Made by a program: the position numbers and the translations under genes. The notes under the pieces were generated by a model, which ran no database searches, was not told where the DNA came from, and saw only the letters and a program-made list of their open reading frames with translations. Shown here in pieces: positions 15,093-55,576 of a DNA stretch of 64,000 bases; within the stretch, counting starts at the first letter, position 1; the number at the start of each line of letters is the position of its first letter. The DNA comes from Thainema sp. (GTDB lineage: Bacteria; Cyanobacteriota; Cyanobacteriia; Phormidesmidales; Phormidesmidaceae), in assembly GCA_052168235.1 (NCBI GenBank), contig JBQLZK010000019.1, forward strand, positions 1 through 64,000, given 5' to 3'.

Positions 15093-15626
15093 ATGGCGTT
15101 AGCGCACACGATTTTAGTAGTTCTGGTCAATGAACCTTGCAGCGGTTACGACATCAGTAAGCGCTTTGACGAGGGCGTGGGCTGTTTCTGGCAAGCCAGC
15201 CAGCAGCAGATCTATCGCGAACTCAGCAAGATGGAAGACAAAGGCTGGGTCGAATCCGAAAAAATTCCCCAGGAAGGAAAGCCAGATAAGAAAATTTATT
15301 ACGTCACCGACACAGGCAAGCAGGAGTTAGCCAGTTGGTTTGCAGAACCCACTGAACCCACTCCCATTCGCGAGGATTTGCTGGTCAAAGTACTGTCCGG
15401 AGCCTTTATGCCACGCGATTTACTGGTTAAAGAATTGCAGTATCGTCGCCAAATGCACCTCGATCAGCTTGCGTTTTATAAAGAAAAAGATGCTCTATTC
15501 AAGGCAGAAACGAATCCCTCGTTGCCTGAACAGTTCCGCTATATGACCCTGCGACGCGGAATCCGCTACGAAATGGCCTGGATCGACTGGTGTGATGAGG
15601 TGTTGGAATTTATTAAAACGCTGTAA
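15093..15626 (+). CDS. PadR family transcriptional regulator
   Basis: SGYDI, QIYREL, KPDKKIYYVTDTG wHTH and Vir_act_alpha-like C-terminus; divergent from the RND operon. Confidence 0.92.
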   Translation: MALAHTILVVLVNEPCSGYDISKRFDEGVGCFWQASQQQIYRELSKMEDKGWVESEKIPQEGKPDKKIYYVTDTGKQELASWFAEPTEPTPIREDLLVKVLSGAFMPRDLLVKELQYRRQMHLDQLAFYKEKDALFKAETNPSLPEQFRYMTLRRGIRYEMAWIDWCDEVLEFIKTL

Positions 15627-17056: not shown

Positions 17057-17683
17057 CTATTCAGCCAGATTTATCTGCCCCTGATACCCCGTGACAATAC
17101 GGCTGCCGTCTTTGAGGACATGGATTTCGATTTGGTCGCTGGCCCAGGTGAGGCGATCGTGTAGCGCGGGGTTCAAAACATGCACCCGCTGGTTGCTGGA
17201 GGATACCAAAGAGTCAGGGCTGTTAATCGCCAGCGATTCGACATAGGGGCCGTCAATGAGCAAATCGAGTTGGTCGAGTAAATCCTGTGCTCCGGCGGGT
17301 GCATTCTGCGATCGCAGTTGCTCAACCGTAAAGCCAGTAAACGACATGACGTTGAGTCCGGCAGCTTTGACCTGACGAGCCACTGCCGCGAGCGCTGTCG
17401 CTTGCCAGAAGGGTTCGCCACCGGAGAAGGTCACGCCTTCATTCTGGGGATGGCTGATAATTCGGTTGACCAGATCCTCGATTGAGATGAGCTGATTCGG
17501 TTCAAACGACCAGGACGCCTCATTGAAGCAGCCTGGGCACTCCCGTAAGCAGCCCTGCACCCAGACAACAGCACGGCAACCGGGGCCATTCACTTCCGAT
17601 TCATCAACGTAGCCCATGATATTGAGGTGGCCAGCCGGAATTTCAATCTGTTCGGTATAGGGATTAGCTTTGATGCGGGTCAT
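17057..17683 (-). CDS. NrdG-like radical SAM activase (single 4Fe-4S)
   Basis: VNGPG, WVQGCLRECPGCFN, GVTFSGGEPF, LIDGPY, SSNQR. Confidence 0.85.
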   Translation of the reverse strand: MTRIKANPYTEQIEIPAGHLNIMGYVDESEVNGPGCRAVVWVQGCLRECPGCFNEASWSFEPNQLISIEDLVNRIISHPQNEGVTFSGGEPFWQATALAAVARQVKAAGLNVMSFTGFTVEQLRSQNAPAGAQDLLDQLDLLIDGPYVESLAINSPDSLVSSSNQRVHVLNPALHDRLTWASDQIEIHVLKDGSRIVTGYQGQINLAE

Positions 17684-18669
17684 ACTGCAACTCCTTCGCT
17701 GGGTTGAGGTGCGCCAAAAATTCTATCGGTCAGTCTCACATACCAGGCAGCGGCCTGTACTTGAATGATATAAGCCATCGCAATAATCAGCGCAATTTCT
17801 GATCCCTGTTCACCCCCAAATACGGTGACGGCAATAGCCAAGGCAATCGATAAATTACGCATTACGGTGCCGTAAACAAGTGCGATCGCATCTCCTCGAT
17901 TAAACAAGGTCTTACCCACAATCGTACTTAAAATAAAATTACCGATATAAAGAACTGCAAGCGGGATCAGAAAAGACAACAATTCCAGCGGATTAGCCAC
18001 AATATCTTTCGCTTTGAGCGCCATCGCCACAAACACAATACCCAGTACGCCTAACGTAGAAAATGCCGGAAACTTTTGCTTCAAATTGCGATTATATTTA
18101 TCTGCACCGACAATCCGAATCAGAATTAGACGAGTGGCAACTCCCAATAGCATGGGTAAGAAAACGATAATGCCAATTTGTCGAAACGTGCTCGCCAAGG
18201 GGATTTCAATCACCGTTCCCATCAGCCACTTGGCATAAAATGGCGTGGCGATTGAGCCCAGAATGAGGCCAATTACTGTCATTTTAACAGCAGCACTTAG
18301 GTTACCTTTAGCGAATCCTGTCCAAGAAATGGTCATGCCGCTTGTCGGCAGAAGCGACGCCAGCAACAGGCCCAGCGCCACCAGAGGACGGTCGCTAAAG
18401 AACACTCGCCCCATGCCGTACGCAAAAAATGGCACAACCGCAAAATTGATGAACTGAGTCACAAGCTGTAGCTTGTAATCTTTACCTGACAAGACCTTCT
18501 GGACTTGCAGGTTAATCATCATCGGGTACACCATCAGAAAGGTGAGCGGTACAATCCAAGCTTTTAGCGGAGCCGGATTAGTCAGATATCCCACTACAAT
18601 TCCAGCCACCATCGACGATGGAACGGCCCAAACCAGATTCTTTTGAAAAATCTCCAGTAGCTTCCACAC
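17680..18669 (-). CDS. ACR3/bile-acid:sodium symporter (BART) family transporter
   Basis: About 10 TM helices, MVYPMM, PTSGMTISWTGFAKGN, RNLSIALAIA. Confidence 0.75.
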   Translation of the reverse strand: MWKLLEIFQKNLVWAVPSSMVAGIVVGYLTNPAPLKAWIVPLTFLMVYPMMINLQVQKVLSGKDYKLQLVTQFINFAVVPFFAYGMGRVFFSDRPLVALGLLLASLLPTSGMTISWTGFAKGNLSAAVKMTVIGLILGSIATPFYAKWLMGTVIEIPLASTFRQIGIIVFLPMLLGVATRLILIRIVGADKYNRNLKQKFPAFSTLGVLGIVFVAMALKAKDIVANPLELLSFLIPLAVLYIGNFILSTIVGKTLFNRGDAIALVYGTVMRNLSIALAIAVTVFGGEQGSEIALIIAMAYIIQVQAAAWYVRLTDRIFGAPQPSEGVAV

Positions 18670-18723
18670 AGTTCACAATTCTCCTGAGTTATTGTCTTGA
18701 GTTATCAATGTTGGAAATATTTA

Positions 18724-18749
18724 GTAGGGGCGAATGGTATTCGTCCCTA
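18724..18749. repeat. GTAG-type REP hairpin
   Basis: GTAGGGGCGAATGGTATTCGTCCCTA. Confidence 0.6.
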
Positions 18750-18763
18750 TCGATCCCTATGGC

Positions 18764-19108
18764 TTAATGGGAAACCTGTAAGGTGCGATCGAGTTCTGCG
18801 ATGAGCTGTGAAATGCGATCGCGGATTGCATTCACATTCGGTTTCGGTTGCTCTTCGAGCGCCATCGCCACCATTTGCAGCCCGATCTCCACAGCATCCG
18901 TAGAACTGAGCATGATCACGAACATATCGTCTGGATTGTTGGTCACCTCAAAATTGAGGTGAATAGAGGCCGGGTTCTGCTGCTCTTGACCCTCAACTGC
19001 ACCAACACGAGAAATCTTGCTGCCTTTAACAGTAGCGACATCATTGACCTGCCCCATTAGCGTAATGTCATGGGTGGTGAGGGAGTGGGTGACAAACTTA
19101 ACGGTCAT
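18764..19108 (-). CDS. Hypothetical protein (114 aa)
   Basis: Strong RBS GGAGG upstream of ATG; co-oriented within the operon; no family recognised. Confidence 0.7.
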   Translation of the reverse strand: MTVKFVTHSLTTHDITLMGQVNDVATVKGSKISRVGAVEGQEQQNPASIHLNFEVTNNPDDMFVIMLSSTDAVEIGLQMVAMALEEQPKPNVNAIRDRISQLIAELDRTLQVSH

Positions 19109-19202
19109 GGTTTTGCCTCCTATATACGGCAATAATTGATAGAGATTGACTACGGCAATGATTAGATAATGAATCTGGAGTTGATTAGGTTGGCCAGCAG
19201 GG

Positions 19203-20306
19203 TCAGGTATCGGCCACTAGCTCTGCCATCAGCGCTGCAACAGGCACAATCTCCGTCGCTCGCCCTGCATGGCTACCTGCAAAAACTAAACCCTGTTGCA
19301 CATCTCCCCGTGCGGCCCGATCAAGCGCCTGAAGAATACAGAATCCTTCCTTCGCCTCCCGATATCGACAAACCTGCAAGCAGTTGGCAATGCATCGTTT
19401 AACCAAGGGATCGGGTAAGTTCTGGGCAGCCTGCTCTGTGAACGAATTGCGCAGTGCTCGTCCCGGCAGCCCCACCGGACTAGACAAAATCACAACATCA
19501 TCAGCACTGGCCTGTAGATGAAATTCTTTGTAGCGGATGTTGGCATCGCACTCATGGGTCGTAATAAATCGAGTGCCAATCTGAACACCGTTAGCCCCCA
19601 ATGCCAGCATGCGGTTGATGTCCTGCCGATCCCAAATGCCGCCCGCCGCAATTACGGGTATATCAACGTTTAGATCATGCTGTAGGTAATTTACTAACTC
19701 TGGGATAACGATATCCAGATCCAGAGCTGGTTTACCTAAATCCTCAGCTTTTGCGCCTAAGTGACCGCCCGCAGCATTGGGTGTTTCCACAACAAATGCA
19801 TCCGGCAGACGACCATAGCGAGATTCCCAGCGACGACAGATGAGTTTGGCCGCTCGCAGGGTGGAAATGATTGGCACCAGGGCCACATCTGGATAGGATT
19901 GCGTGTACTCCGGCAAGTTCAACGGTAGCCCTGCGCCGCTGAGTATGATGTTTGCCCCGTGGGCCGCCGCCGTCCGCGCCAGCGTTTCATGATCGCGGGC
20001 CGCCATCATTGAGTTAATGCCAATAATGCCGTCTGGGCTTAGCTCTCGTGCTCGTTCTAGTTCATCAATGAGCGCTAGTCGATTTGCAGCAAAAAAGGTG
20101 TTCTTGGGCTGCTGCAGGTCGAAGTAAGGAGACCGAAACCCCAATCCAACAGCAGAGATAACACCAATGCCTCCCGCATTGGCAACGGCAGCGGCAAGAT
20201 TAGCACCCGAAATTCGAATGCCCATACCGCCTTGAATGATCGGATAGCGAGCTATATGTTGACCAATTTTGAGCGATGGTAGCGTAGTCATCATGCGTAT
20301 CGTCAT
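19203..20306 (-). CDS. Nitronate monooxygenase/FabK-like flavoprotein with 4Fe-4S Cys motif (FabX/UfaA-like), paralog 1
   Basis: PIIQGGMG, AGGHLG, IAAGGI, GVQIGTRF, CIANCLQVC...FCI. Confidence 0.85.
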   Translation of the reverse strand: MTIRMMTTLPSLKIGQHIARYPIIQGGMGIRISGANLAAAVANAGGIGVISAVGLGFRSPYFDLQQPKNTFFAANRLALIDELERARELSPDGIIGINSMMAARDHETLARTAAAHGANIILSGAGLPLNLPEYTQSYPDVALVPIISTLRAAKLICRRWESRYGRLPDAFVVETPNAAGGHLGAKAEDLGKPALDLDIVIPELVNYLQHDLNVDIPVIAAGGIWDRQDINRMLALGANGVQIGTRFITTHECDANIRYKEFHLQASADDVVILSSPVGLPGRALRNSFTEQAAQNLPDPLVKRCIANCLQVCRYREAKEGFCILQALDRAARGDVQQGLVFAGSHAGRATEIVPVAALMAELVADT

Positions 20307-20884
20307 CGTAAATTTGCTGTTCTTCTATCGCGCTGTCCCCTGCTCCAGCGACCCTGTTGTAATCCAGTCAGCATAGCTGTTCCAGCACATCGTTCGAATG
20401 CGGGTTGATGATTGTTCTGAGACACGTAGCTGAGTTGAGTAAAGGCCGCTCTTAGGTTAGGTTCCTGCACAAAGCTCAGGAAACGGTCATACATTTGGTA
20501 GTCTGCAATCTCGGCCTCGACTCCCATCTGACAGGCCGCTTGAAGCGTGTCGGGAATCTCTACATTGCCTGCAAAGGTATCCTCCGGCACAGGGATTCCG
20601 TATTGAGCAAAGAGTGACTGCCAAAGCTGCACATGCCGATTTTCTGCCTGAACGATGTTGCTGAAGGGTCGTACCGAGCCAAACTTGTCAATCACAGCAC
20701 TATAAAAAGCACGGGCATGATATTCATCATTAATGGCGTCGATCATGGCCGATTGCGTTCTAGCGTCAAGATTAGTGCCACCCGCACCATAGGCAGAAAG
20801 CGCCGCAACGATCATCACTGCCACTCCAGCTCCAACGGATGCTAGATAAGGCCAGTATTTTTTTTGATGTTTTTGCTGTCTCAT
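20303..20884 (-). CDS. Ferritin-like domain protein (DUF2202-like) with N-terminal signal/TM
   Basis: DEYHARAFY...AENRH...EAEI...NNH diiron-type pattern. Confidence 0.7.
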   Translation of the reverse strand: MRQQKHQKKYWPYLASVGAGVAVMIVAALSAYGAGGTNLDARTQSAMIDAINDEYHARAFYSAVIDKFGSVRPFSNIVQAENRHVQLWQSLFAQYGIPVPEDTFAGNVEIPDTLQAACQMGVEAEIADYQMYDRFLSFVQEPNLRAAFTQLSYVSQNNHQPAFERCAGTAMLTGLQQGRWSRGQRDRRTANLR

Positions 20885-20910: not shown

Positions 20911-20926
20911 ATAACTAAATAGTGAT
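20911..20926. promoter_or_regulatory. Island operator ATAAC-N6-GTGAT
   Basis: ATAACTAAATAGTGAT upstream of the ferritin/NMO operon. Confidence 0.65.
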
Positions 20927-20992
20927 AATACAAGTACTTGTGTAGGATGAGCACTGCTTACCACTCCCAATTAGATCTTTTTGTCATTCGCA

Positions 20993-21154
20993 GTAGGGCG
21001 GATTTTGTATATCGGTTCTAATTGAAAGCCTAAATTGAGTCGCTAAACCCGCCCCTACTAGACATTTTTGGAGTGATGTAGATTGGGTTGAGTTATAACG
21101 AAAATCAACAACTTTATTAGTTGTTGGGTTTCGCGTTGCTCAACCCAACCTACA
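20993..21154. repeat. Two adjacent GTAG-type REP elements
   Basis: GTAGGGCGG...CCGCCCCTAC and GTAGATTGGGTTGAG...CTCAACCCAACCTAC; the second matches 47612-47687. Confidence 0.75.
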
Positions 21155-21171
21155 ACCCACAACATTGAGAA

Positions 21172-22485
21172 CTAAGCATTCGCGGCCATATCTTTCACAT
21201 TTTTTGGGTGAGTTGATGACGCCTGTACCAAATCCACGCCAAATAGAGCCTTCAGCCCCAGTCGCTCGAACCAGGGTACAGCAACCCCCATTCGCATTTT
21301 GGTCATAAAGTACTGCTCAAACATGGTTTTGCCCCAAACAACCCATTTTCCCTGCACTGCATAGGCATAGCGCCGCTGATGCGTGACGGGATCTGGCAGA
21401 ACTGGAGCAGCGACATAAAGAATGCCTGTGTCTCCAAACTCCGCAAAGCAAATGGCTTCTAGAGTGGGTACTTTTAATGGTTCCGAAATAGCACCGAGTT
21501 CAACTGCAATGTTATGTGCGACGGCCATCCCCATTGCTTCCGTCATTTGTCCACTCTTCGGTAGCCCGATCGGGACACGCGGCTTATCCGGTTGCGCTAA
21601 CTGCACGCTGACCCCCAGTGCATAAATTTCTGGAAACGTGGGATGTTGCTGAGTCGGCAAAATTGGGATAAAGCCTTTTTCATCACCCAATCCAGGCGCG
21701 TTTTGAACAAACCGCACGCCTCGGAATGCAGGCAAAATCATGGCGTACTTTTGAGGAATACTGCGGCCATCATCCAGTGTGATAGCGGTGTCAGTCACTT
21801 TAGTAATTGCTGCATCCTCAATAATTTCAACATTCCGCTTACGCAACAGCGCTTCCGTCAGTTTTTGGGCATTTTTTACGCCACTAACACCTAAATGTCC
21901 CGCATACGGCTCTGGCGTCACCAGGGTGAGCGAAACCTTATTTCGCAGTTTCTTACGGCGCAAAATCCAGTCCACCATCAGCACAAACTCATAGGCTGGG
22001 CCAAAACATCCCGCTCCAGGGGCGGCACCAACTACCAGTGGGCCTGGATCATCTAGAAACCTTAACCAAGCGTCGCGAGCTTCCACCGCATGATCGGCAG
22101 AACAGATGGAATGGGTGTAACCGCCGTGTGGACCTAATCCGGGCACCTGATCAACGGCGAGACTGGGGCCTGTGGCAATTACTGCATAGTCATAGTCAAT
22201 CGTCTGACCCGTTTGCACGGTGATCCGCTTTTCTTGGGGATTCAGCGCCGTCACCTTACTATTAACTAAATGCAAGCCATGCTGCTCGGCTAGCGGCTGC
22301 AAATCTAACTGAAAATGATCCAGCGGATCAAGATCGAGCGCAACTCGCGCTAAACCAGGAATAAAAGTAAATTTAGGGTGTTCCGAGATTAACGTAACGG
22401 TATGCTCAGCGGGCAGCAAATGCCGTAACTCATAAGCTGTCGGCAAGCCTCCTAATCCGGCTCCAATCACTACTACGTTTGCCAT
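21172..22485 (-). CDS. sqr: Sulfide:quinone oxidoreductase (type I-like)
   Basis: GAGLGG FAD motif; conserved cysteines in HSIC, GCFGPAYEF and AICFAEFG; PKSGQMTEAM; TPEPYAGHLG. Confidence 0.88.
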   Translation of the reverse strand: MANVVVIGAGLGGLPTAYELRHLLPAEHTVTLISEHPKFTFIPGLARVALDLDPLDHFQLDLQPLAEQHGLHLVNSKVTALNPQEKRITVQTGQTIDYDYAVIATGPSLAVDQVPGLGPHGGYTHSICSADHAVEARDAWLRFLDDPGPLVVGAAPGAGCFGPAYEFVLMVDWILRRKKLRNKVSLTLVTPEPYAGHLGVSGVKNAQKLTEALLRKRNVEIIEDAAITKVTDTAITLDDGRSIPQKYAMILPAFRGVRFVQNAPGLGDEKGFIPILPTQQHPTFPEIYALGVSVQLAQPDKPRVPIGLPKSGQMTEAMGMAVAHNIAVELGAISEPLKVPTLEAICFAEFGDTGILYVAAPVLPDPVTHQRRYAYAVQGKWVVWGKTMFEQYFMTKMRMGVAVPWFERLGLKALFGVDLVQASSTHPKNVKDMAANA

Positions 22486-22631
22486 TTCTTATAACCTCAA
22501 TCAATAAGTTCTTAAGTCACGTCTTGCCTAATCCGGCTGTGCAGACAAACCCCCTAGACACCCATCCTGAAACACTGAAAGCAGCTTATGTGAGTCATTA
22601 AAATTGCTAATTAATTGCGTATTTAAAGTAT

Positions 22632-22647
22632 ATAACCATATAGTGAT
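22632..22647. promoter_or_regulatory. Island operator upstream of sqr
   Basis: ATAACCATATAGTGAT; on the minus strand it lies 5 nt after a -35-like TTGAAC. Confidence 0.65.
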
Positions 22648-22901
22648 GAAAAGTTCAAGTTAATTTTTGATGAGGGGAAAGGGATAAGGTGCTGAGTGCT
22701 AGGTAGCAGGTGTTAGGTATGAGATGGCAAGTGGTAAAGGAGACCCAATACCTAATACCTGTATCTCCTAACGTTTTTACACACTACAACATGCTAAAGA
22801 AAACAAGGGGATACCGATACTCAGTGATATCGATTCCCCTATGGCGTGATGAAGTAAGAATGAACCTTGACGCTGTACTAGTTGGAATACAAGTTGAAAG
22901 A

Positions 22902-23999
22902 CTAGCTGTGAAGTGCGATCGCAGGTGCGACCATGCTGATAGGCGTAATATCCCCACTGGCTAATACTTCCGGAAAATTGTGAGCATTGGGCGCGTGCAT
23001 GACCTGAATGCCCAAGGTGGCTCGGTTGAGAATATCCGCGTTTGTTCGAATCACGGAGCCTTGGCTGTCCAAAATAGAGTGGTTAAAGTTGAAGCCATTC
23101 AGGTTGAAGGCCATCACGCCGACACCTAGAGCAGCGCACCAGATGCCAATCGTTGGCAACGCGACGAGCAGGAAGTGAACGCTGCGGCTGTTGCGGAACG
23201 CGAGTGAGGGAATCAGTAACCGCCCCAAATAGCCGACATGACCGGCAATTAGGTTATAGGTTGCTTCTTGCTGACCGAACCGATAACCCGCATTGGCCGA
23301 TTCCAAATCAGAGGTTTCTCGCACTAGGCTAGCGGTAACTAACGAGCCATGCATGGCGCTCAACAGCGCGCCACCAAAGACGCCTGCCACCCCAATCATG
23401 TGCAGTGGATGCATCAAAATATTGTGAGCAGCTTGGAAAGCAAACATGAAGTGGAACGTGCCCGCAATTCCGAGCGGTAAACCTTCTGAAAAGCTACCTT
23501 GACCAATGGGATAAACCAACAGAACCGCTGTGGCCGCTGCCACCGGAGCCGAAAATGCGATCGCAATCCAGGGACGCATCCCCAGCCGATAGCTCAACTC
23601 CCACTGACGACCCATGTAAGCGAAAATGCCAATCAAAAAGTGCAGCACAATTAGCTGATAGGGGCCGCCATTGTAGAGCCACTCAGCGATTGAGGACGCT
23701 GCCCAGATGGGATAAAAGTGCAAGCCAATTGCCGCAGAGGTGGGAATCACGGCAGCCGTGATTAGATTATTGCCGCTGATCAGCGACCCAAACACTGGCT
23801 CCCGAATCCCTTCCATATCCACAGGTGGAGCGGCAATGAAGGCCAACGCAAAAACAGTTGTGGCTACTAGTAACGTTGGAATCATGAGGACACCAAACCA
23901 ACCGATGTATAACCGATTGTCAGTACTGGTAATCCAGCGACAAAAATCAGCCCATAGATCAAAATCAATGGCCGGTCGTTTTTTGAGTGCAATAGCCAT
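22902..23999 (-). CDS. psbA: Photosystem II D1, rogue (group 2) form lacking Mn4CaO5 ligands
   Basis: D1 fold with D61E, D170E, E189A, E333A, R334P, D342V; Y161, H190, H198, H215, H272, H332, H337 retained; altered QB loop. Confidence 0.9.
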
Positions 24000-24288
24000 A
24001 TATAGCCTCCTTAAATGAGGAGAAAATCGACGGTTTATAAGATGAAGAGAAAATGATGTCTCTTAACAAACCGACGATCGATTGCGAGTTGAAGCTTGGA
24101 TAGTTAAGTTGATGAATGAAACAACTCAATCAGCAAGCTGTTCAATCAACTGACCTGTCAACTAGACGAGTCCGACAAATTTTGCCGTTAGAAAAATATA
24201 GAAAAACGTCGCCGTACGCCGGGCCAACAGCCTAGAAAACGTTAGCGGTCAGTCCTGAGTGAATTATAGAACCGCTTTTTAAAGCTAA

Positions 24289-24304
24289 ATGACTATTTAA
24301 TTAT
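24289..24304. promoter_or_regulatory. Island operator variant in the psbA/DUF2892 divergent region
   Basis: ATGACTATTTAATTAT (reverse complement ATAATTAAATAGTCAT). Confidence 0.45.
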
Positions 24305-24576
24305 TTTTAGAGATTTTGTCTTGACAAATAGCAATGATCAACAACAGCAAGATAGAATTTTTTTATAAAAGCGACTGAAATTTGCTTCGGCAGTCGTTGG
24401 CGCTACACAACAGCAGTCAGCAGCAGTTTTATCCTAAAAATTCATTCTGGATAGGCGCTTAAGCCGATATCCAACACTGGTTACGCTTTTAAATGGCGAT
24501 TAAATAATAAAACCTTTTTAATACCCATATAGCAACAGTTGCGACGATCGCGACTCGACTGAGATCGCAAATCTGC

Positions 24577-24606
24577 TTTACAACTCTATAACCAACAAGC
24601 TATATT
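24577..24606 (+). promoter_or_regulatory. Sigma70-like promoter overlapped by the island operator
   Basis: TTTACA-18nt-TATATT, with ATAACCAACAAGCTAT at 24588-24603. Confidence 0.6.
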
Positions 24607-24705
24607 AAGGAGCGTAACGAAAATATTGCCACCTCTCCTTAAGTCACAGCTTCAATGACGGCTAGAGTTTTGGCGATTGATCCACTCATCTCGGAGATGA
24701 TACTT

Positions 24706-24918
24706 ATGAAAACAAATGTAGGCTCAATTGATCGGCTCATTCGTCTCTTATTAGCATCTGTACTGCTGTATTTTGGTCTGTTAATTCACGGCGGTACAGC
24801 ATTGGGAATTGGCCTTACTCTTGCAGGCAGCATTTCATTTATGACGGGTCTAATTGGCTTTTGTGGTCTTTACAAGCTTTTGGGGATTTGCACCAAGCAG
24901 CCCAATGAACAGCTCTAA
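24706..24918 (+). CDS. DUF2892 (YgaP-like) membrane protein
   Basis: NVGSIDRLIR...TGLIGFCGLYKLLGICT; RBS GGAG upstream. Confidence 0.85.
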   Translation: MKTNVGSIDRLIRLLLASVLLYFGLLIHGGTALGIGLTLAGSISFMTGLIGFCGLYKLLGICTKQPNEQL

Positions 24919-24951
24919 AACATTACTCAGCTTATTCTTGAGAACTTAATC

Positions 24952-25380
24952 ATGACTTATCACTTCAGCAAAGTGGTTGATGCGTCCTTCGAAGATGCGA
25001 TCGCACAAGTAACCGAATCCCTTAAACAAGACGGTTTTGGCATTTTAACGGAAATCGACGTCCAGGCTGCCTTTCAGAAAAAGCTAGGAGCCTCATTTCG
25101 ACAGTACAAGATTCTAGGAGCCTGTCATCCTCAGATTGCCTATCAAATCCTGCAAACCGATGATAAAGCGGGAGTCATGTATCCCTGTAACGTGGTGGTA
25201 CAGGAGCATGAAGACGGCAGAGTGGAAGTTTCGGCGGTTGATCCGTTGATCATGTTTTTAATGGTGCATAATCCCCGCGTTAAAGAAATCGCGCTGGATG
25301 CTAGTGAAAAGATGCAGCGCGTCATCGAGCGTCTCCCTGCCGCCAACCGACTGGCCCAGCAAGCCGAATACGCCATTTGA
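24952..25380 (+). CDS. DUF302 domain protein
   Basis: GFGILTEIDV, YKILGACHP, YPCNVVV, VSAVDP. Confidence 0.88.
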   Translation: MTYHFSKVVDASFEDAIAQVTESLKQDGFGILTEIDVQAAFQKKLGASFRQYKILGACHPQIAYQILQTDDKAGVMYPCNVVVQEHEDGRVEVSAVDPLIMFLMVHNPRVKEIALDASEKMQRVIERLPAANRLAQQAEYAI

Positions 25381-25396
25381 GTGGAGGTGAGTAACG

Positions 25397-25945
25397 ATGA
25401 GCAATAGTATGGACAACAGTTTGCCATTAGACAGCCCGTCCCTATCTCGGCGGCAACTGCTCAACTTCTTGACCGGGGCAACCGTTGCAGCCACCGCTGG
25501 CTCTGCTCTCTACGCAATGGGCAAGGTGTTTGTACCACCTGCCGAACCGACGGGAGCTGGAGGCGCAATTATCGCCAAAGATATTCTGGGTAAACCGATT
25601 CCGGCAAGTCAAATTTTGGCCGAACCACCCGGCACCCGCGCCTTAGTCGCAGGGCTAGCGGGTGAGCCGACATATCTTACGGTTCAAGCAGACAGCACCC
25701 TCGATCGCATGGGGCTAGTCGATAACTGTACCCATCTCGGCTGTACCTTCCCCTGGAACGAAACCGATCAGCAGTTTCAGTGCCCCTGCCACGGTTCTCG
25801 CTATGCGCCGGATGGCTCAGTTATTCGAGGGCCAGCTCCCCTACCTTTGAAGCTGGTTCAGGTGGCCGTTGTTGATAACACCATCTTGATTTCGCCGTGG
25901 ACTAAGACTGATCCTCGAACTGGCGAACAACCGTGGTGGGTTTAG
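25397..25945 (+). CDS. petC: Cytochrome b6f Rieske iron-sulfur subunit (alternative, PetC2-like)
   Basis: Tat SRRQLL, CTHLGC and CPCHGS, C-terminal DPRTGEQPWW; not adjacent to petA. Confidence 0.92.
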   Translation: MSNSMDNSLPLDSPSLSRRQLLNFLTGATVAATAGSALYAMGKVFVPPAEPTGAGGAIIAKDILGKPIPASQILAEPPGTRALVAGLAGEPTYLTVQADSTLDRMGLVDNCTHLGCTFPWNETDQQFQCPCHGSRYAPDGSVIRGPAPLPLKLVQVAVVDNTILISPWTKTDPRTGEQPWWV

Positions 25946-26074
25946 CTAGTACTTGAAGCAATCAGAGCATGTACTTAGGTTAAGTATATATGCTGATGCC
26001 AATCTAAAAACCTATCATTAACTTGTCCAGTTTTGCCGATCTCCACAACAGGCTAGCTGATCGTTCTACAACTA

Positions 26075-26175
26075 ATATCCAGTCTGTGTATAAGAACCCT
26101 ACTTATTTTTGTGAAACGTTTGCGAAGCAAATGTTTCACAAAAATAAATTATGGGTTTTCAACCAGACTTGATGT
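26075..26175. repeat. Palindromic element, family A
   Basis: ATATCCAGTCT...TTATTTTTGTGAAACGTTTGC-gaa-GCAAATGTTTCACAAAAATAA...AGACTTGATGT. Confidence 0.85.
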
Positions 26176-26221
26176 AACTCGCTTCACGTTCACTCAATTC
26201 CTCCACACCATAGGAGTCTGT

Positions 26222-26620
26222 ATGAAAATTGCTGTATCCAGTCAAGACCAAACTCATGTAACGGCTCACTTGAGGCACTGCCAAAAGTTTTGGATCTACG
26301 ATGTAGACGCTGACACGATTCAAAACAAACAGCTGCTACAACTGGCGAAAAGCCAAAGCTTCCACGAAAGTTCTCCCAAAACATCTCACCCCTTAGACAC
26401 GGTTCAGGTACTCATCAGCGGCAGTATGGGTCGAGGCTTAGCCCGTCGGCTGGACGCTAAAGGAATTCAGCCACTGGTGACATCTGAAACAGATCCAGAC
26501 GCTGCGATCGCAGCTTATCTGACCGGATCTTTGGCTGTCGGTTCTCCAGAAGAACATAATCATGCTCACGATCACGCAGAAGGCGATCACGCAGGCAAAT
26601 GTGGCTGTCATCACGAGTAA
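26222..26620 (+). CDS. NifB/NifX-family cofactor-binding protein with His/Cys-rich tail
   Basis: MKIAVSS, HLRHC, ISGSMGRGL; RBS AGGAG; tail HNHAHDHAEGDHAGKCGCHHE. Confidence 0.8.
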   Translation: MKIAVSSQDQTHVTAHLRHCQKFWIYDVDADTIQNKQLLQLAKSQSFHESSPKTSHPLDTVQVLISGSMGRGLARRLDAKGIQPLVTSETDPDAAIAAYLTGSLAVGSPEEHNHAHDHAEGDHAGKCGCHHE

Positions 26621-26864
26621 GCCATATCCGGTTTGTAATCTGTTGATTGATCAACCATTTGTAGCGGTTGACAAGCGTATTACGTGTAGCCGCATTACAT
26701 ACAAAAACTGTTACGTACGAAAACAGTTATGTGGAGCGCTGCGTGCCTTATATAACCGTATTTGACCAACGCGCATAGCGCTATAGTTCGTGGTGAAATG
26801 GGTATTTTGCCGCCGCGTTGCGGCGCGAAATACCCTCTTCGTGTTTTAGTAAAAAGGAAAGCAA

Positions 26865-27326
26865 ATGTGGGGTAGCGCAATCACTGCCTATTTACATTAC
26901 TTAGGTTTCATGTTGGCGTTTGGAGCGTTAGTCATTGAAAATCAAACGCTGAAGAAAGATCTTAATCTTGCAGACGCTTGGCGCGTACTAACGGCAGACG
27001 CAATTTATGGATTGTCAGCGACGGTCATCTTAATTACGGGAATTTTGAGAGTCCTTTATTTTGGTAAAGGAACGGAATATTATCTCAACAGTCCGGTTTT
27101 TTATATCAAAGTTGGTCTGTTTATTATCGTTAGTTTGCTATCGATTTATCCTACCTTTTCGTTTCTGTCTTGGGTCAAGGATTTACGTAACGGCAAATGT
27201 CCCAGCCTTGAGCTGCCACAAGTGCAGCGGCTGAATTGGCTGATTCGAGGAGAACTGATCGGGCTGGCGCTCATTCCTCTATTTGCAGCGCTTTTGGCCA
27301 GAGGCATTCAGCTATGGAACGTGTAA
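26865..27326 (+). CDS. DUF2214 family membrane protein
   Basis: AYLHYL, D-x-x-YG, TGILR, KG-x-x-YY, SIYPT, LLARG. Confidence 0.8.
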   Translation: MWGSAITAYLHYLGFMLAFGALVIENQTLKKDLNLADAWRVLTADAIYGLSATVILITGILRVLYFGKGTEYYLNSPVFYIKVGLFIIVSLLSIYPTFSFLSWVKDLRNGKCPSLELPQVQRLNWLIRGELIGLALIPLFAALLARGIQLWNV

Positions 27327-27435
27327 AGTCTTTCAATCACGAATAGGATTCAGACCAGGATGTTTTGCTGTGCCGATGCAGTTTGTACAGCGAAACATCC
27401 TCTTTTTTAGTGCTCTCTTTAGAAACTCATAAATC

Positions 27436-28674
27436 ATGGTTGACTACGATGTCCTGATAGTCGGCGGCGGCATGGTTGGCATGTCCTTAGCCGCTGCTTT
27501 GAGAACCACATCACTGCGGGTCGGCATCATTGAACGCACCGACCCACAGTTATCACAAAACGACAGCCGAGCAAGTGCGATCGCACTTGGCTCAGCCTAT
27601 ATCCTGGATCAGATTGGAGCTTGGCAAACGATGCAAACCCTGGGAGTCTCTCCCATCCATCAAGTTGTCATATCGGATGAAGGGTTTCCCCTAACGACCA
27701 CCTTGCGCCGAGAAGATCTAGACGTTCCGGCACTGGGATACGTTGTGGAAAATCAGGTGACAACAACAGCATTAACTGAGGTTGTTATGGCTGCTCCCCA
27801 GGTGCAGTGGTTACGTCCTGCCAAGGTAACAGAAATCACCGCTCAGCCCAGTCATCTGCAAGTCACCTTGGAGCATCAGGATAAGGTGCAGCAGGTTTCT
27901 GCTTATCTGGTGGTTGGTGCAGATGGTCGCCAATCCTGGGTGCGGCATTGGGCTAATATTCCCGTTTCCAAGCGGAACTACCCGCAAGCGCTCATTGTCT
28001 GCACCATCACCACTGAACTGCCGCATTACCAAACGGGATATGAGCGGTTTCATCGTAGCGGGCCGTTTGCCATTCTGCCGATGATTGCGCCTAATGGCTC
28101 ACCCAACATCCATCGCAGTTGTGTCGTTTGGACAGCCCAAGCCCAGCAGCGCGATCGCTTACTGGCTCTAGATGATGCAGCGTTTATTGAAGCAATGGCT
28201 CCTCGAATCAGTCCTGATTTAGGACAGGTGCTATCGGTTTCTGCACGGGCTTGCTACAGCCCTCGTTATCAGCACAGCCGGAACTACCAGGCTCACCGAC
28301 TGGCACTCGTCGGAGATGCCGCCCATGCCACTCATCCCGTGGGTGGGCAGGGGCTAAATATGGGCTTACGGGATGTCGCTGTCTTAGCCTCTTTGCTAAC
28401 TCGGGCACAGACTCTCGGCCTTGATCCAGGACACGCCGATCTCCTCCAGCAGTATCAGCGCCAGCGTCAGCCAGATAACGCAACAGTTCTATTTGGCACC
28501 GATCTAGCTAATCGCTTGTTTTCTAATAGCTGGCTACCACTACAGTTGATGCGTCGGCTGGGCCTGTTTGGGATCGAACATGTTTCACCACTCAAGCGCG
28601 AACTCGTTCGATACGCAATGGGTCTAGCCACCAATCAACCCCAATTTAGCTCAAACCCTACTGTGAGGAAGTAA
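27436..28674 (+). CDS. UbiH/UbiF/VisC-family FAD-dependent hydroxylase
   Basis: GGGMVG, GADGRQSWVR, GPFAILP, GDAAHATHPVGGQGLNMGLRD. Confidence 0.9.
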   Translation: MVDYDVLIVGGGMVGMSLAAALRTTSLRVGIIERTDPQLSQNDSRASAIALGSAYILDQIGAWQTMQTLGVSPIHQVVISDEGFPLTTTLRREDLDVPALGYVVENQVTTTALTEVVMAAPQVQWLRPAKVTEITAQPSHLQVTLEHQDKVQQVSAYLVVGADGRQSWVRHWANIPVSKRNYPQALIVCTITTELPHYQTGYERFHRSGPFAILPMIAPNGSPNIHRSCVVWTAQAQQRDRLLALDDAAFIEAMAPRISPDLGQVLSVSARACYSPRYQHSRNYQAHRLALVGDAAHATHPVGGQGLNMGLRDVAVLASLLTRAQTLGLDPGHADLLQQYQRQRQPDNATVLFGTDLANRLFSNSWLPLQLMRRLGLFGIEHVSPLKRELVRYAMGLATNQPQFSSNPTVRK

Positions 28675-28710
28675 AACGTGAGACGTGAGGCATAAAGACT
28701 GTAAAAACTC

Positions 28711-28808
28711 ATTACCCAACACCTGACACCAATACTTAACACCCAAAAACTAGCACCTGGCATCCAACACTCAACACCTAGCACCTAACACCCAAAACCC
28801 AACTCCCC
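28711..28808. repeat. STRR-like degenerate heptamer tract
   Basis: Repeated (C/T)AACAC(C/T)-like 7-mers; similar tracts at 17017-17052, 22682-22765 and 31006-31029. Confidence 0.6.
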
Positions 28809-28814
28809 ATTACT

Positions 28815-28855
28815 AAAAAAACTGAGGAAGCGACTCTCCAAAACGCTTCCTCAGT
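28815..28855 (-). terminator. Rho-independent terminator of psbA (D1')
   Basis: ACTGAGGAAGCG...CGCTTCCTCAGT stem preceded by an A-tract (U-tract on the minus strand). Confidence 0.7.
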
Positions 28856-28908
28856 GTCAGGTTTCAGTTGAAATACACCTTAGTTAGGACCCGTTAGTTT
28901 CACTCGGC

Positions 28909-29991
28909 TTAACCTGCGATCGCAGGTGCAACCAGTGCAATTGGCTGAATATCACTAGCTGCCAGATCCAGCGGGAAGTTGTGCGCGTTACGCTCGTGGA
29001 TCACCTCAATCCCCATGTTGGCTCGATTGAGAACGTCGGCCCAAGTTGCAATCGGGCGGCCCTGAGCATCCAGCACAGAATCATTGAAGTTAAAGCCATT
29101 CAGGTTGAATGACATAGTGCTGATGCCGAGCGAGGCAAACCAAATACCAATTACCGGCCAAGCCGCGAGGAAGAAGTGCAGCGATCGCGAGTTGTTGAAC
29201 GAGGCATATTGGAAGATCAGCCGACCAAAGTAGCCGTGAGCGGCCACAATGTTATAGGTTTCTTCTTCTTGACCGAACCGATAGCCGTAGTTGAGCGACT
29301 CTGTTTCAGTCGTTTCCCGCACCAAGCTGGAGGTAACCAGTGAACCGTGCATAGCGCTGAAGAGTGCGCCACCGAAGACCCCAGCCACACCTAGCATATG
29401 GAACGGATGCATCAGCACATTATGCTCAGCCGTGAACACAATCATGAAGTTGAAGGTGCCGGAAATGCCGAGCATCAGGCCATCAGAGAAGCTACCTTGA
29501 CCAATCGGATAGATCAGTAAAACAGCCGTTGCGGCAGAAGCCGGAGCAGAGAATGCAACCGGAATCCAAGGCCGCATACCCAGACGATAGCTGAGTTCCC
29601 ACTGACGCCCCATGTAAGCATAGACGGCAATCAAAAAGTGGAAAATGATCATCTGGTAGGGGCCACCGTTGTAGAGCCACTCATCCAGCGTCGCCGCTTC
29701 CCAGATGGGATAAAAATGGAGTCCAATGGCGTTGGACGTGGGAACGACGGTCGCTGTAATGATGTTGTTGCCATACAGCAGTGAACCGCTGACGGGTTCG
29801 CGGATGCCGTCAATATCGACGGGAGGTGCTGCAATAAATGCCAAGACAAAGACAATGAGAGCCGTGAGAGCAGTCGGGATAAGTAGAACACCAAACCAAC
29901 CAACGTAGAGCCGATTTTCTGTGCTGGTAACCCAACTACAGAACCGCTCCCACACATTAGCGCGATCGCGCTGTTGTAGAGATGTAGTCAT
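28909..29991 (-). CDS. psbA: Photosystem II D1' (microaerobic, group 3)
   Basis: All Mn ligands present (D170, E189, H332, E333, D342, A344); diagnostic G80A, F158L, T286A, plus P173M. Confidence 0.92.
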
Positions 29992-30060
29992 AGTTCAATG
30001 AATGAAAATATAGGAAACGTATGAAGTGAAATCGGCAGGAAAAGCCTGTCCTCATATTTA

Positions 30061-30087
30061 ATAACTAAATAGTTATTTAATTGTCAA
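30061..30087 (-). promoter_or_regulatory. D1' promoter: TTGACA followed by a perfect island operator
   Basis: Minus strand TTGACA-attaa-ATAACTATTTAGTTAT. Confidence 0.7.
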
Positions 30088-30284
30088 GCCCATTGGTGGA
30101 ATTTTTTGTTTTTGCATCCGGTTACGGATGATTTGCAATAACGAACAGATTTGAGGAGCTACTTAGGCCGATCTACTTTGTTTTCCTATTTCAGCAGCTC
30201 CGCATTTTACCCGTTTTACGTCCTGTAACAAAATATAAATACAAATATTCGACAAAGCAGTCATATAGCTATATAAAGATATTA

Positions 30285-30300
30285 ATCGCTTCATGGTTAT
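30285..30300. promoter_or_regulatory. Island operator upstream of the Tll0287-like gene
   Basis: ATCGCTTCATGGTTAT; weaker copy GCAGTCATATAGCTAT at 30257-30272. Confidence 0.5.
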
Positions 30301-30381
30301 AGATTAGCGATCTGGGTTCGCCCTGCGTTGGCTGATTGCTCTAGATCGCTCGATATGTTCACCCCTTCATCGACTGAACTC

Positions 30382-31002
30382 ATGCTAAAACTCATCTATC
30401 GGCTCGTTTTTACTATCGGATGTGCGATCGCACTTGTGGTTTGGCATCCGACTTCGGCCTGGGCACAGACCAACCCCGCAGAACTGGCTAAAGCCGTGCA
30501 AGAAATTGAACACCTCGATAGTTTGCGTTCCGGCTTGGCTTCCACACTAGAGGGGCAGACTGAAGAACCAACCCTCCAAACCATGCAAGAAGTCTGCAAG
30601 CCGGTCGGCATGAAAGCAATGCAGCTGGGGCAGGAAAACGGTTGGCAGGTAAAGCAAATCGCCAACAAGTATCGCAATCCCGCCCATGCACCTGACAATC
30701 CCAATGCCGAAGCAGCGCTAGCGCAATTTGAGCAGCATCCAGACCTAGTTGGCTTCTGGGAACGAGAAACGATCAATGGGCAAGCAGGAACCCGCTACTT
30801 CCGCCGCATCAACGTCGAAGCCAGCTGTCTAGCCTGCCACGGCAGCGAAAACAGCCGTCCCCAATTCGTCAAAGACAACTACCCACAAGACTTAGCCTAC
30901 GACTTCCAAGTTGGCGACCTGCGCGGCATGTATTCCGTCTTCATGCCAGACGTGCAAGCCAGCGTACAGCAAGCATTACGAGTTGCACTTGACCCTTCTT
31001 AG
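30382..31002 (+). CDS. Tll0287-like (DUF3365) c-type haem protein
   Basis: Signal peptide, EVCKPVG Cys ligand, KYRNP, SCLACHG CxxCH, GDLRGMYSV. Confidence 0.88.
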   Translation: MLKLIYRLVFTIGCAIALVVWHPTSAWAQTNPAELAKAVQEIEHLDSLRSGLASTLEGQTEEPTLQTMQEVCKPVGMKAMQLGQENGWQVKQIANKYRNPAHAPDNPNAEAALAQFEQHPDLVGFWERETINGQAGTRYFRRINVEASCLACHGSENSRPQFVKDNYPQDLAYDFQVGDLRGMYSVFMPDVQASVQQALRVALDPS

Positions 31003-31051
31003 TAGCTCCTCACTCCTCACTCCTCACTCAATTCCCCATAAGGCAACTTCC

Positions 31052-31582
31052 ATGTGGCATCAGCTCCAGCGCACAGTTTCGTTATTGGTAGTTACGGCGT
31101 TAGTCGGTTTAACTCTGCTGTGCTGCATCTTCTCAACACCGCCAGCCTTGGCTGCCATTCGTCAGCTAGAAGAAGCACCCGGACAGGTTGTCTACCAGTC
31201 GCGGCAAACGCTCAAGGATCAACACAACAATAGTTGGCAAGCGATCGCATTTAAGCGTATCCAGCCCGATGCCAATCCCCAGGTTTATCTGCGACTGGTT
31301 GGCTTCCCTGGCACAGCCGACATTGACCGCTCTCAGCCCCTGGTTTTAACCAGCTCAATGGGACAAACGTTGGAAGCCGCCGATGCCTCCAGCCGAATTT
31401 TTACTGATGCAAGTGCGCCGGAGCCAAACGTCGGTCAGTACAACTTACAGCCAATTCTGGCGGAGCTGCGGGCCGAACTGCCCTGGCGCTTACAGATTCC
31501 AGCGGCTGAAGGAGTCAAGGTGACGCTACCTGTTCCATCAAGCATTATTCAAGAATGGCAGACCGTTGCTCAATATGATTAG
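31052..31582 (+). CDS. DUF3122 family exported protein
   Basis: Signal peptide; QSRQTLKD, SWQAIAFKR, LRLVGFPG, NVGQY. Confidence 0.75.
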   Translation: MWHQLQRTVSLLVVTALVGLTLLCCIFSTPPALAAIRQLEEAPGQVVYQSRQTLKDQHNNSWQAIAFKRIQPDANPQVYLRLVGFPGTADIDRSQPLVLTSSMGQTLEAADASSRIFTDASAPEPNVGQYNLQPILAELRAELPWRLQIPAAEGVKVTLPVPSSIIQEWQTVAQYD

Positions 31583-31655
31583 AAGTCTGGGATTAAAGGT
31601 CTGCAATTAGAAGTCTGGGGCATGTAATCGTCGCACGGTGATGTATTATCGAAAA

Positions 31656-31671
31656 ATTGCTATTTAGTTAT
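31656..31671. promoter_or_regulatory. Island operator upstream of NMO paralog 2
   Basis: ATTGCTATTTAGTTAT, ending 14 nt before the ATG. Confidence 0.6.
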
Positions 31672-31685
31672 CAATCGAACAGATC

Positions 31686-32762
31686 ATGTTGCGATCGCAC
31701 TCTCCTCTCAAAATTGGTCAGCACGTTGCTCGCTATCCCATTGTGCAGGGTGCAATGGCGGTGCGGGTTTCTGGTGCTAATTTGGCAGGAGCCGTTGCCA
31801 ATGCCGGAGGCGTTGGGGTTATCTCAACGCTGGGTTTAGGGCTAACTTCGCCCCACTTTAATCAGTCCCGCCGGGGCAACTTTTTCGAGGCTAATCAGCT
31901 CGCGCTAATCGACGAACTGCAAAAAGCGCGCACCATTAGTCCCGACGGCATCATTGGAGTTAACATCCTAGTTGCAACCCGCAACTACGCCACCCTAGCG
32001 GAAACTGCCGCTGCCAACGGAGCCAATCTGATCATCACCGCCGCAGGTCTGCCGCTCCAGTTACCTGCTTATACTGCCAACTACCCAGAGGTAGCGCTGA
32101 TGCCAATGGTCTGCGGTCTGCCTGCTGTGCAAACCCTTTGCCAAACCTGGCAGCAGCAGTATGGTCGGTTGCCCGATGCGTTTATTGTCGAAAACTCCAA
32201 AGCAGTCGGTGGCCATGTAGGCAGCACCTGCGACAATTACAGCAGCCAAATTGAAACGCTGCTGCCCAGCATTCAGCATTATCTCCACCATCACCTGCGC
32301 GTCGATATTCCGCTGATTGCTACAGGCGGCATCTGGAATCAAGCCGATGTGGAGCGGATGCTAGCGCTCGGAGCCAGTGGCGTACAGGTGGGTACTCGTT
32401 TCATTACCACTGAAGAGTGCGATGCGGATGATCGCTACAAAGAATTTCATCTCCAATCCACTCCGGCGGATGTCGTCATGGTGCCAAGCCCAGTGGGTAA
32501 GCCAGCGCGGGTTCTCCGCAATGCGTTTGCCGAGAAAGCAATGGCGGCATCTGTCGGCATTAAGCGCCGCTGTGTTGCCAACTGTCTCGAAAGCTGTCTC
32601 TGCCGCGATCAGCGCCAAACCTACTGCATGTTACAAGCACTCGCCAATGCCGCCAAGGGCGATATTGAAAATGGACTGCTCTTTTCGGGAGCGAATGTGG
32701 GACGAGCCGAACAAATTGTGCCAGTTGCTGAAGTGATGGCAGATTTAGTTAACGTTAGCTGA
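31686..32762 (+). CDS. Nitronate monooxygenase/FabK-like flavoprotein (FabX/UfaA-like), paralog 2
   Basis: PIVQGAM, VGGHVG, GVQVGTRF, CVANCLESC...YCM; clearly paralogous to 19203-20306. Confidence 0.85.
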   Translation: MLRSHSPLKIGQHVARYPIVQGAMAVRVSGANLAGAVANAGGVGVISTLGLGLTSPHFNQSRRGNFFEANQLALIDELQKARTISPDGIIGVNILVATRNYATLAETAAANGANLIITAAGLPLQLPAYTANYPEVALMPMVCGLPAVQTLCQTWQQQYGRLPDAFIVENSKAVGGHVGSTCDNYSSQIETLLPSIQHYLHHHLRVDIPLIATGGIWNQADVERMLALGASGVQVGTRFITTEECDADDRYKEFHLQSTPADVVMVPSPVGKPARVLRNAFAEKAMAASVGIKRRCVANCLESCLCRDQRQTYCMLQALANAAKGDIENGLLFSGANVGRAEQIVPVAEVMADLVNVS

Positions 32763-55511: not shown

Positions 55512-55576
55512 CATCAGGCTTTCGCCGATATGACTCATCAATCCCATTAACCGCAACCACATTAGAGGAATTGGGC

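Follow-up and report, generated by a model that had tools for sequence, protein, structure and literature searches.

Repressors of the ArsR family that respond to sulfide are already known (PMC10054925, PMC12423496), as is the proximity of sqr, the gene for sulfide:quinone oxidoreductase, to arsR and low-oxygen psbA genes (PMC5061849, PMC11304991, PMC8002359). Here we analyse a 16-bp palindrome, written ATAAC-N6-GTTAT in an original prediction, that recurs among such genes in a 64,000-nucleotide stretch of the cyanobacterium Thainema sp. (assembly GCA_052168235.1, contig JBQLZK010000019.1, positions 1 to 64,000), hereafter the window. The contig is C19 of this 7.5-Mb genome (G000), whose other contigs are labelled within C1-C69; further G and L labels denote the genomes and loci compared.

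The closest described system is SuoR (Sll5035) of Synechocystis PCC 6803, encoded on plasmid pSYSM. According to a review (PMC4307280), SuoR binds the shared suoC-suoS promoter and represses both gene pairs, and a paper citing that work links the suo operon to sulfide and arsenite exposure (PMC5061849). SqrR of Rhodobacter capsulatus, BigR and HlyU, which form cluster 4 of the ArsR sequence similarity network, likewise have the ArsR fold and control sqr, rhodanese and dioxygenase genes; a preprint gives the SqrR core operator as 16 bp with AT ends and helix position i+5 as a main determinant of specificity (bioRxiv 10.64898/2026.05.15.721447). ChlR (Sll1512) is an O2-sensing HxlR/MarR-type Fe-S activator of the same physiological targets, namely acsF2, ho2, hemN and D1'; it is reported to activate chlAII-ho2-hemN and to bind the psbA1 promoter (PMC4500134), through the motif TTMCC-N3/4-GGWAA (PMC5295598, PMC13421787). 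Grim and Dick 2016 (PMC5061849) observed that arsR-like genes and low-oxygen psbA neighbour sqr and proposed that their transcription is linked; they name no cis element, and "promoter" and "binding" are absent from the main text.

The system described here departs from each of these. SuoR, as described, is a local regulator of four plasmid genes (suoS-suoR and suoC-suoT), whereas the predicted regulon here is chromosomal, includes D1', petC2, pdo and tetrapyrrole genes, involves three paralogue types and has its regulator in trans. Relative to SqrR and BigR, photosystem II and chlorophyll genes are added to the targets, and the SqrR operator (ATTC-N8-GAAT), although also a 16-bp palindrome with AT ends, differs in its half-site from the consensus found here. 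ChlR boxes and our site are largely mutually exclusive at ho2 clusters. From sequence comparison, we think it highly probable that the palindrome is the operator of SuoR-clade ArsR/SmtB repressors linking sulfide and low-O2 responses.

Neither the operator, nor a phylum-wide regulon, nor an alternation of ChlR and ArsR was found in the literature searched, with most subscription papers and RegPrecise-type databases lying outside that search. Six of the 16-mers had no occurrence in the literature searched, and the accessible parts of PMC7042703, PMC5776472 and bioRxiv 10.64898/2026.06.23.733971 held nothing on the site. The suo site itself may have been shown in Nagy 2014, and the clade may be covered by the cluster tables of the SqrR preprint.

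The palindrome in the island and in its genome

All seven copies claimed by the original prediction lie at their given coordinates, and the -35 hexamer with a 5-nt gap that it described for three promoters is present at 30061 and 22632 (both minus strand) and at 24588 (plus strand). Its N6 centre needs correcting, since the centre bases are conserved too in the seven-site matrix. The sites, as predicted operators with their scores and genome ranks, and the hexamers are as follows:

20911..20926, strong operator (21.0 bits, rank 6), ending 27 nt before the minus-strand operon for a ferritin-like protein, nitronate monooxygenase (NMO), a hypothetical protein, an SBF transporter and a radical SAM protein
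22632..22647, strong operator (21.1 bits, rank 4), 147 nt upstream of sqr
22653..22658, minus strand, -35-like hexamer TTGAAC of a predicted promoter, 5 nt before the sqr operator
24289..24304, weak operator-like site (14.6 bits, rank 29), 290 nt upstream of rogue psbA
24577..24582, plus strand, -35-like hexamer TTTACA, 5 nt before the DUF2892-petC2 operator
24588..24603, weak, positionally conserved operator (12.1 bits, rank 72) of the DUF2892-DUF302-petC2 operon
30061..30076, operator, perfect pattern match (22.9 bits, rank 2), 70 nt upstream of psbA (D1')
30082..30087, minus strand, consensus -35 TTGACA, 5 nt before the D1' operator
30285..30300, weak operator-like site and uncertain member (11.9 bits, rank 83), upstream of the Tll0287-like gene
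31656..31671, strong operator (20.6 bits, rank 7), 15 nt before NMO2

As to whether such a motif is equally frequent in random AT-rich DNA, a doubt that the original prediction had raised against itself, the plain pattern is barely enriched, but the strong copies stand far above chance. With up to three mismatches the plain pattern has 193 matches in the window against 168 ± 11 in shuffles (1 of 100 shuffles reached 193), and this slight enrichment places the signal in the strong copies and their conserved centre bases. When each copy was left out of the matrix in turn, the number of equal-or-better matches in the genome was 1 for 30061, 3 for 20911, 6 for 22632 and 20 for 31656; it was 103 for 24289, 105 for 24588 and 126 for 30285, so that these three are not significant alone. 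A matrix of foreign sites ranks the seven copies 2, 4, 6, 7, 29, 72 and 83 in the genome, a test that is not fully independent because the matrix was seeded by the window sites. The four strong copies (30061, 22632, 20911 and 31656) thus all fall within the top 7 of 7.5 Mb. Seven sites in the genome reach at least 20 bits, and four of them lie inside the 15.7-kb island, where 0.006 are expected; at 14 bits or more the real matrix finds five island matches, and each of 30 column-permuted palindromic matrices finds 0-1.

The individual copies differ in how well they are supported by relatives. The TTGACA-N5 spacing of the D1' operator recurs in 6 of 9 site-bearing psbA promoters, and also in the same-genus genome G359, where the NMO2 operator is retained as well (18.7 bits). 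In orthologous DUF2892-petC2 promoters the site follows a similar CTTTA-like element in 3/3. Sites comparable to 24289 before rogue psbA were seen in L251 and L252 only, and the 24289 site is overlapped by a weaker copy shifted by 8 nt (24281, 7.8 bits). Genes like tll0287 usually lie within the sqr operon in the sqr loci compared.

Two further matches in the window were set aside: a copy inside sqr (22178), recurrent in many sqr genes, falls on codons for the conserved residues DYDY-x-VI and was treated as a coincidence of coding, and a 17.7-bit copy at 62799-62814, within a 330-aa open reading frame (ORF; 61928-62920) and outside any promoter, is probably due to chance. A different palindrome, CATCCG-N4-CGGATG, occupies 30117-30132, about 30 nt upstream of the D1' -35 hexamer; it has three genome copies and was not found in the other D1' loci compared.

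The genes of the island are:

17057..20884, minus strand, ferritin-like gene (no Pfam match; the name is that of the original prediction), NMO, hypothetical gene, SBF/ACR3-like transporter and NrdG-like radical SAM gene
21172..22485, minus strand, sqr, 58% to the Synechocystis pSYSM enzyme
22902..23999, minus strand, rogue psbA, with residue changes D170E, E189A and E333A
24706..25945, plus strand, DUF2892 (YgaP-like), DUF302 (SuoC-like) and petC2 Rieske genes
28909..29991, minus strand, psbA encoding D1', with residue changes G80A, F158L and T286A
30382..31582, plus strand, genes for a Tll0287-like haem protein and a DUF3122 protein
31686..32762, plus strand, NMO2, an NMO/FabK-like flavoprotein

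We take D170E, E189A and E333A as the markers of rogue D1, and G80A, F158L and T286A as those of D1'. The gene set is patchy, since G359 (99% complete) retains radical SAM-D1'-DUF3122-NMO2 and no sqr was found in it. Two elements resembling repetitive extragenic palindromes or miniature inverted-repeat transposable elements sit at island junctions: nested inverted repeats between sqr and the ferritin-like gene (20996-21154), and an element of ~105 bp after petC2 (about 26070-26180) with dozens of copies in G359. Outside the island, 55571-61813 holds a gene whose translation reads as a 2080-aa polyketide synthase-aminotransferase-condensation hybrid, beside an iron-siderophore-binding-like gene.

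The original prediction spoke of an island regulon, which proved too narrow, as the same site precedes genes on other contigs. Among its best copies beyond the window are those at C14:89717 upstream of pdo (metallo-beta-lactamase type)-rhodanese/DUF2892-tauE, again as TTGACA-N5; at C69:27442 and C69:27172 between ho2-hemN-bchE and acsF2; and at C32:907 upstream of an ArsR gene. The predicted regulon is therefore genome-wide, adding pdo-rhodanese-tauE and acsF2/ho2-hemN-bchE, and is conserved across several cyanobacterial orders. Other sites include C40:51358 and a pair with common flanks that look like repeat copies (C38:17895 and C46:52898). Only 34 of 2693 operon-leading ORFs of the genome (1.3%) have a site of at least 12 bits. 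The BchE protein (C69:22434-24530, L001:435-2531; 699 aa, TIGR02026 above cut-off), encoded downstream of ho2-hemN under the same predicted operator, carries a C-terminal response-regulator receiver domain.

A conserved site over -10-like hexamers

For other cyanobacteria, we scanned with a matrix from the seven window sites only, counting, once duplicates were removed, matches of at least 12 bits no more than 350 nt from operon-leading genes; the loci are 69 sqr loci from named genomes plus later loci, in which kin are not independent. The site was found before sqr in 27/51 promoters, before psbA genes best matching D1' (by match, with residues untyped) in 9/12, before pdo in 14/19, before acsF in 11/21 and ho in 17/32, and before DUF302, DUF2892 and NMO2 genes in 6/9, 3/3 and 2/4. 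Among arsR genes, whose types A to C are described below, it was present in 21/41 promoters of type B, 1/5 of stand-alone type A and 1/10 of type C. Low or nil counts came from rogue D1 (0/3), ferritin-like (0/5), leading hemN (0/14) and tll0287-like genes (1/9). Controls gave 0-2.5% in shuffles, 0/5 for non-cyanobacterial sqr, 0/9 for ChlR and 0/13 for other HxlR genes. The scan of orthologous promoters that the original prediction had proposed as a check thus shows conservation well above shuffle and leading-ORF controls.

Target specificity is sharp within the D1 family: the site precedes 5/5 D1' genes (T286A) and 0/21 standard D1 genes, in a sample without four loci whose upstream sequence is shorter than 300 nt and without the D1-like genes of L306/L307, which are atypical. 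Two genomes with tandem standard-D1/D1' genes (G123 and G259) have the site before D1' in both and before sqr-tll0287 in one. Of the proposed co-control of SQR and both alternative D1 forms, the part joining sqr and D1' stands, as they share the site; rogue D1, with a site directly upstream in just 2/22 other loci and L054 possibly reached via its petC operon, was rejected as a general member.

The consensus of 110 foreign sites is ATWACTATATAGTWAT (AT-W-A-C-TATATA-G-T-W-AT), dyad-symmetric and worth about 17 bits. It reads as a pair of ATARYTAT-like halves, in keeping with how often a second copy is shifted by 8 nt. Among the foreign sites, the distance from a TTGACA-like hexamer to the site peaks at 2, 5 and 10 nt, and -10-like hexamers occur at offsets 15, 13 and 7, so that in each arrangement of these predicted promoters the site overlaps the -10. 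The repressor-like geometry over the -10 region claimed originally is accordingly that of a real, conserved operator-like element. Degenerate exact-pattern counts in 60 genomes do not separate by regulator, many matches looking like 7-nt tandem repeats (59 in G195), and were dropped as evidence.

Strong sites also occur before genes seen at single or few loci: HdrC-like Fe-S proteins (four), a peroxiredoxin and a Dps/ferritin. The HdrC/HdrB/HdrA-like clusters, named from Pfam domains, lie beside sqr behind strong sites in L044, L079, L081 and L086 and are possibly a further sulfur-oxidation branch. Genes for aldehyde-deformylating oxygenase (L072:11302-12015 and L251:541-1233) and hemF-type coproporphyrinogen oxidase (L087, L146, L150, L152 and L242) follow strong sites as well; both enzymes require O2, which suggests that under O2 shortage the regulon raises O2-consuming enzymes as well. 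Two records labelled Actinomycetota and Sphingobacterium (L064 and L084) contain sqr clusters of cyanobacterial type that include D1' or petC as well as the site, and are probably mis-binned.

SuoR-clade ArsR proteins and other candidate regulators

The original prediction saw no regulator gene in the island and suggested a trans-acting one, possibly of the ArsR family, to be sought by a site before its own gene. Indeed, none of the genome's nine PF01022 (ArsR) matches is on C19, and an ArsR gene on C32 (379-735) has the site about 170 nt upstream. The protein comparisons that follow make SuoR-clade ArsR repressors, recognisable by the helix QAN[VL]SKHL and encoded here on C32 and C6, the most likely binders; the predicted regulator family is thus not unknown but that of Synechocystis SuoR. 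ArsR genes with this helix occur in the fetched flanks of 32/65 cyanobacterial-type sqr loci. Among the other 24 ORF clusters recurring in at least four sqr loci, no helix-turn-helix repressor family was found (21 were scanned together and two more separately, the remaining one being a DUF2892 gene); other recurrent neighbours are histidine kinases (13 loci) and a cyclic-nucleotide (cNMP)/AAA+ protein (5 loci).

The clade falls into three types. Type A genes immediately follow sqr, those of type B are often transcribed divergently from pdo, and type C is a chromosomal paralogue found almost everywhere. Type B has a Cys aligned with that at the SqrR alpha2 position and an alpha5 CxxxC; types A and C have no Cys at the former position, and a single alpha5 Cys is shared by all A and B proteins compared and also found in C. 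This genome has type A (C32) and type C (C6) and no type B. The C32 gene, displaced from the usual place behind sqr, encodes a protein that groups with the sqr-adjacent ArsRs of L030, L031 and L069 (99/99). The pSYSM ArsR behind suoS, taken as SuoR by the gene order in the review and not by locus tag, is 47% identical to the C32 protein and 33% to that of C6, and shares with C32 the helix QANVSKHL and the alpha3, beta1 and alpha5 Cys. The candidate matches PF01022 and scores above the cut-off of NF033788, and its AlphaFold model has the CzrA/SmtB/SqrR fold, which confirms the fold only. Against the BigR model (cut-off 155), C32 reaches 48.6 bits, and the two further scores are 38.1 and 38.8, all below. 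The As(III)-type alpha3 C-x-C motif is absent from C32 and C6; the proteins of C47 and C1 have CVC. In PCC 7002 (pAQ7, L108), an IS4 transposase follows sqr, at the position of type A arsR in relatives.

Specificity and promoter position tie the clade to the site. By our own mapping of the preprint numbering, K at helix position i+5 is found only in C32 and C6 among the nine PF01022 matches, compared with Q in the SqrR group; types A, B and C all have K there and should therefore read the same site. The pSYSM locus has the same order sqr-arsR-DUF3365-DUF3122, with chrA-DUF302 divergent, and across the 13-kb suo locus the site scores highest in the divergent suoC-suoS spacer of 116 bp, within the promoter reported to be bound by SuoR, a comparison made by promoter position and not base by base. 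Self-sites occur in 21/41 type B genes, at C32 and at the stand-alone type A gene of L113; type A otherwise lies within the sqr operon. In Acaryochloris marina, AM1_0448-0471 holds psbA1, rhodanese, petC, sqr, nrdG-like, NMO, ArsR and divergent acsF / ho-hemN genes (PMC5295598 Table S3), a cluster that we liken to the island by its gene set. The same table has the cluster up about 10- to 800-fold in microoxic growth, the ArsR itself 10-fold, with log2 values of 3.35 for ArsR, 5.1 for sqr, 4.9 for psbA1, 6.8 for acsF, 6.0 for ho and 7.1 for hemN.

Several findings weigh against assigning the site to this clade. It is absent at threshold from about half of the promoters (sqr 24/51, ho 15/32), and in PCC 7002 sqr lacks it and the DUF2892-petC operon has it. 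Because hexamers resembling a -10 box form part of the motif (TATAGT in its interior, T-ATAAT at its edge), it may look more conserved than it is. In Acaryochloris, ChlR too is present and induced (PMC5295598). Type C has a strong self-site in 1/22 genes, and one of at least 7 bits in 3/22 against a background of 3.3%. Finally, G359, G429 and G147 keep strong sites, and a profile of types A and B found only type C there, so that type C binds the sites or they have another role.

The first of these options is not exclusive of SuoR-clade repression but a variant of it, in which the core regulator is type C (C6, alpha5 CxxxC), sensing O2, redox, Fe-S or metal state in place of persulfide, and types A and B are local, mobile add-ons; we regard it as possible but less than probable. 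The same recognition helix without the SqrR alpha2 Cys, the microoxic induction of the Acaryochloris cluster, and the retention of sites in G359 (where no sqr was found), G429 and G147 (single contigs) speak for it, as does the G359 D1' site, which differs in sequence from that of the window and still keeps the consensus and TTGACA-N5. Its presence in genomes whose acsF/ho2 genes bear the ChlR box instead (G175, G117, G157 and G005) speaks against it, as does its not being seen beside sqr in the loci compared, where types A and B were; the apparent rarity of its self-sites may do so too.

That the site is a diverged ChlR box is very unlikely. The targets overlap (psbA1 and chlAII-ho2-hemN; PMC4500134), the ChlR motif resembles the inner part of some copies (A-TTACC-N4-GGTAA-T), and C30 of this genome encodes a 4-Cys HxlR-type protein that we take as ChlR; overlap and resemblance led us to compare 43 ho2 clusters (43 genomes), with the site sought within 1.5 kb upstream and the ChlR-type box allowed one mismatch. 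Of the genomes lacking a ChlR orthologue 24/30 had the site, and of those with an orthologue 2/13, whereas the box was present in 10/13 ChlR genomes and 3/30 without ChlR (background 3/62 segments), orthology being assigned from family, cysteines and adjacency and not by comparison with Sll1512. Boxes lie mostly before co-linear acsF-ho2-hemN with adjacent chlR, and in site-bearing clusters acsF is divergent from ho2-hemN or absent. In a quick tree of ho2 (39/43 rows kept) the majority of the ChlR-type genes cluster in one part, so the contrast reflects few independent events, not 43. ChlR is moreover an activator, and the site covers the -10. In this genome, five regions checked gave a ChlR-type box beside chlR only, with none in the island or the acsF/ho2 and pdo regions, and ChlR seems uncoupled from acsF2/ho2 here. 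That box (C30:76085, L106) lies between the chlR-like gene and a divergent gene that we take to be OsmC-like.

Equally improbable is that the motif serves as a promoter element, whether as divergent -10 boxes that overlap or as the target of an alternative sigma factor, or that it is an AT-rich by-product. The TATAGT core and the T-ATAAT edge of many copies, the weak enrichment of the raw pattern and the exact counts that do not track the regulator would suit this reading; but so few of the genome's leading promoters and none of the 21 standard psbA promoters carry the motif, it is dyad-symmetric with about 17 bits, and a fixed element would not vary in its distance from TTGACA. Least credible as binder is the product of the PadR gene (15093-15626, about 1.4 kb from the island's left end) or the MerR-Clp protein, a MerR-HTH (helix-turn-helix) and Clp-N fusion separated from a solute-binding protein gene by the third-ranked site of the genome (C38:38874, L002:5875), since a PadR homologue occurs in 0/69 sqr loci and lies on another contig in G359, MerR-like matches are rare and weak, and the site starts 2-10 nt after the -35, unlike MerR boxes, which lie across it.

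Proposed mechanism and meaning

Under SuoR-clade repression, we infer binding and repression as follows. In air without sulfide, an ArsR dimer on the -10 region would block sigma70 polymerase; modification of cysteines would release it and turn on together sulfide oxidation (sqr, petC2, tll0287-like and pdo-rhodanese-tauE), D1' and the low-O2 tetrapyrrole enzymes (acsF2, ho2, hemN and bchE). The candidates for the acting regulator here are the SuoR-like C32 gene and the near-ubiquitous C6 paralogue. The likeliest signal would be sulfane sulfur or persulfide, and we lean slightly towards persulfide as the direct ligand; it would build up at low O2, as persulfide dioxygenase needs O2. The persulfide sensing that the original prediction proposed stays a hypothesis: the SqrR/BigR alpha2 Cys occurs only in type B, which this genome lacks, and the comparable gene set in Acaryochloris is induced in microoxic growth. 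Direct redox/O2 or metal-thiolate sensing may apply instead, though we hold this doubtful.

A psbA2-only Thermosynechococcus strain is reported in a preprint to produce abundant Tll0287, an effect that disappears once the psbA3 promoter drives psbA2 (10.1101/2023.02.13.528314); loss or titration of a shared repressor would explain this overproduction. Taken jointly, these parts make a tentative claim: in many cyanobacteria, D1', PetC2, AcsF2, HO2, HemN/HemF2 and BchE together with sulfide oxidation may stand under one thiol-based ArsR that reads persulfide as a proxy of anoxia, with ChlR, the textbook O2-sensing activator of the model strains, a minority arrangement arisen by regulator swap at the same genes, type C the core regulator, and its lost repression the cause of Tll0287 overproduction in psbA2-only Thermosynechococcus with the native psbA2 promoter.

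These results address two open questions, the switch to sulfide-driven or microoxic photosynthesis and the inducer of D1' in species without ChlR. The earlier idea of co-regulation of sqr and low-oxygen psbA rested on gene proximity and now has a concrete predicted operator, repressor candidates and a target list. In metagenomes of microbial mats the site offers a marker by which genes responding to sulfide or hypoxia can be scanned for, and it might serve as an inducible promoter part. For the cyanobacteria themselves, it points to two wirings of the same low-oxygen chlorophyll and bilin genes, repression by ArsR and activation by ChlR.

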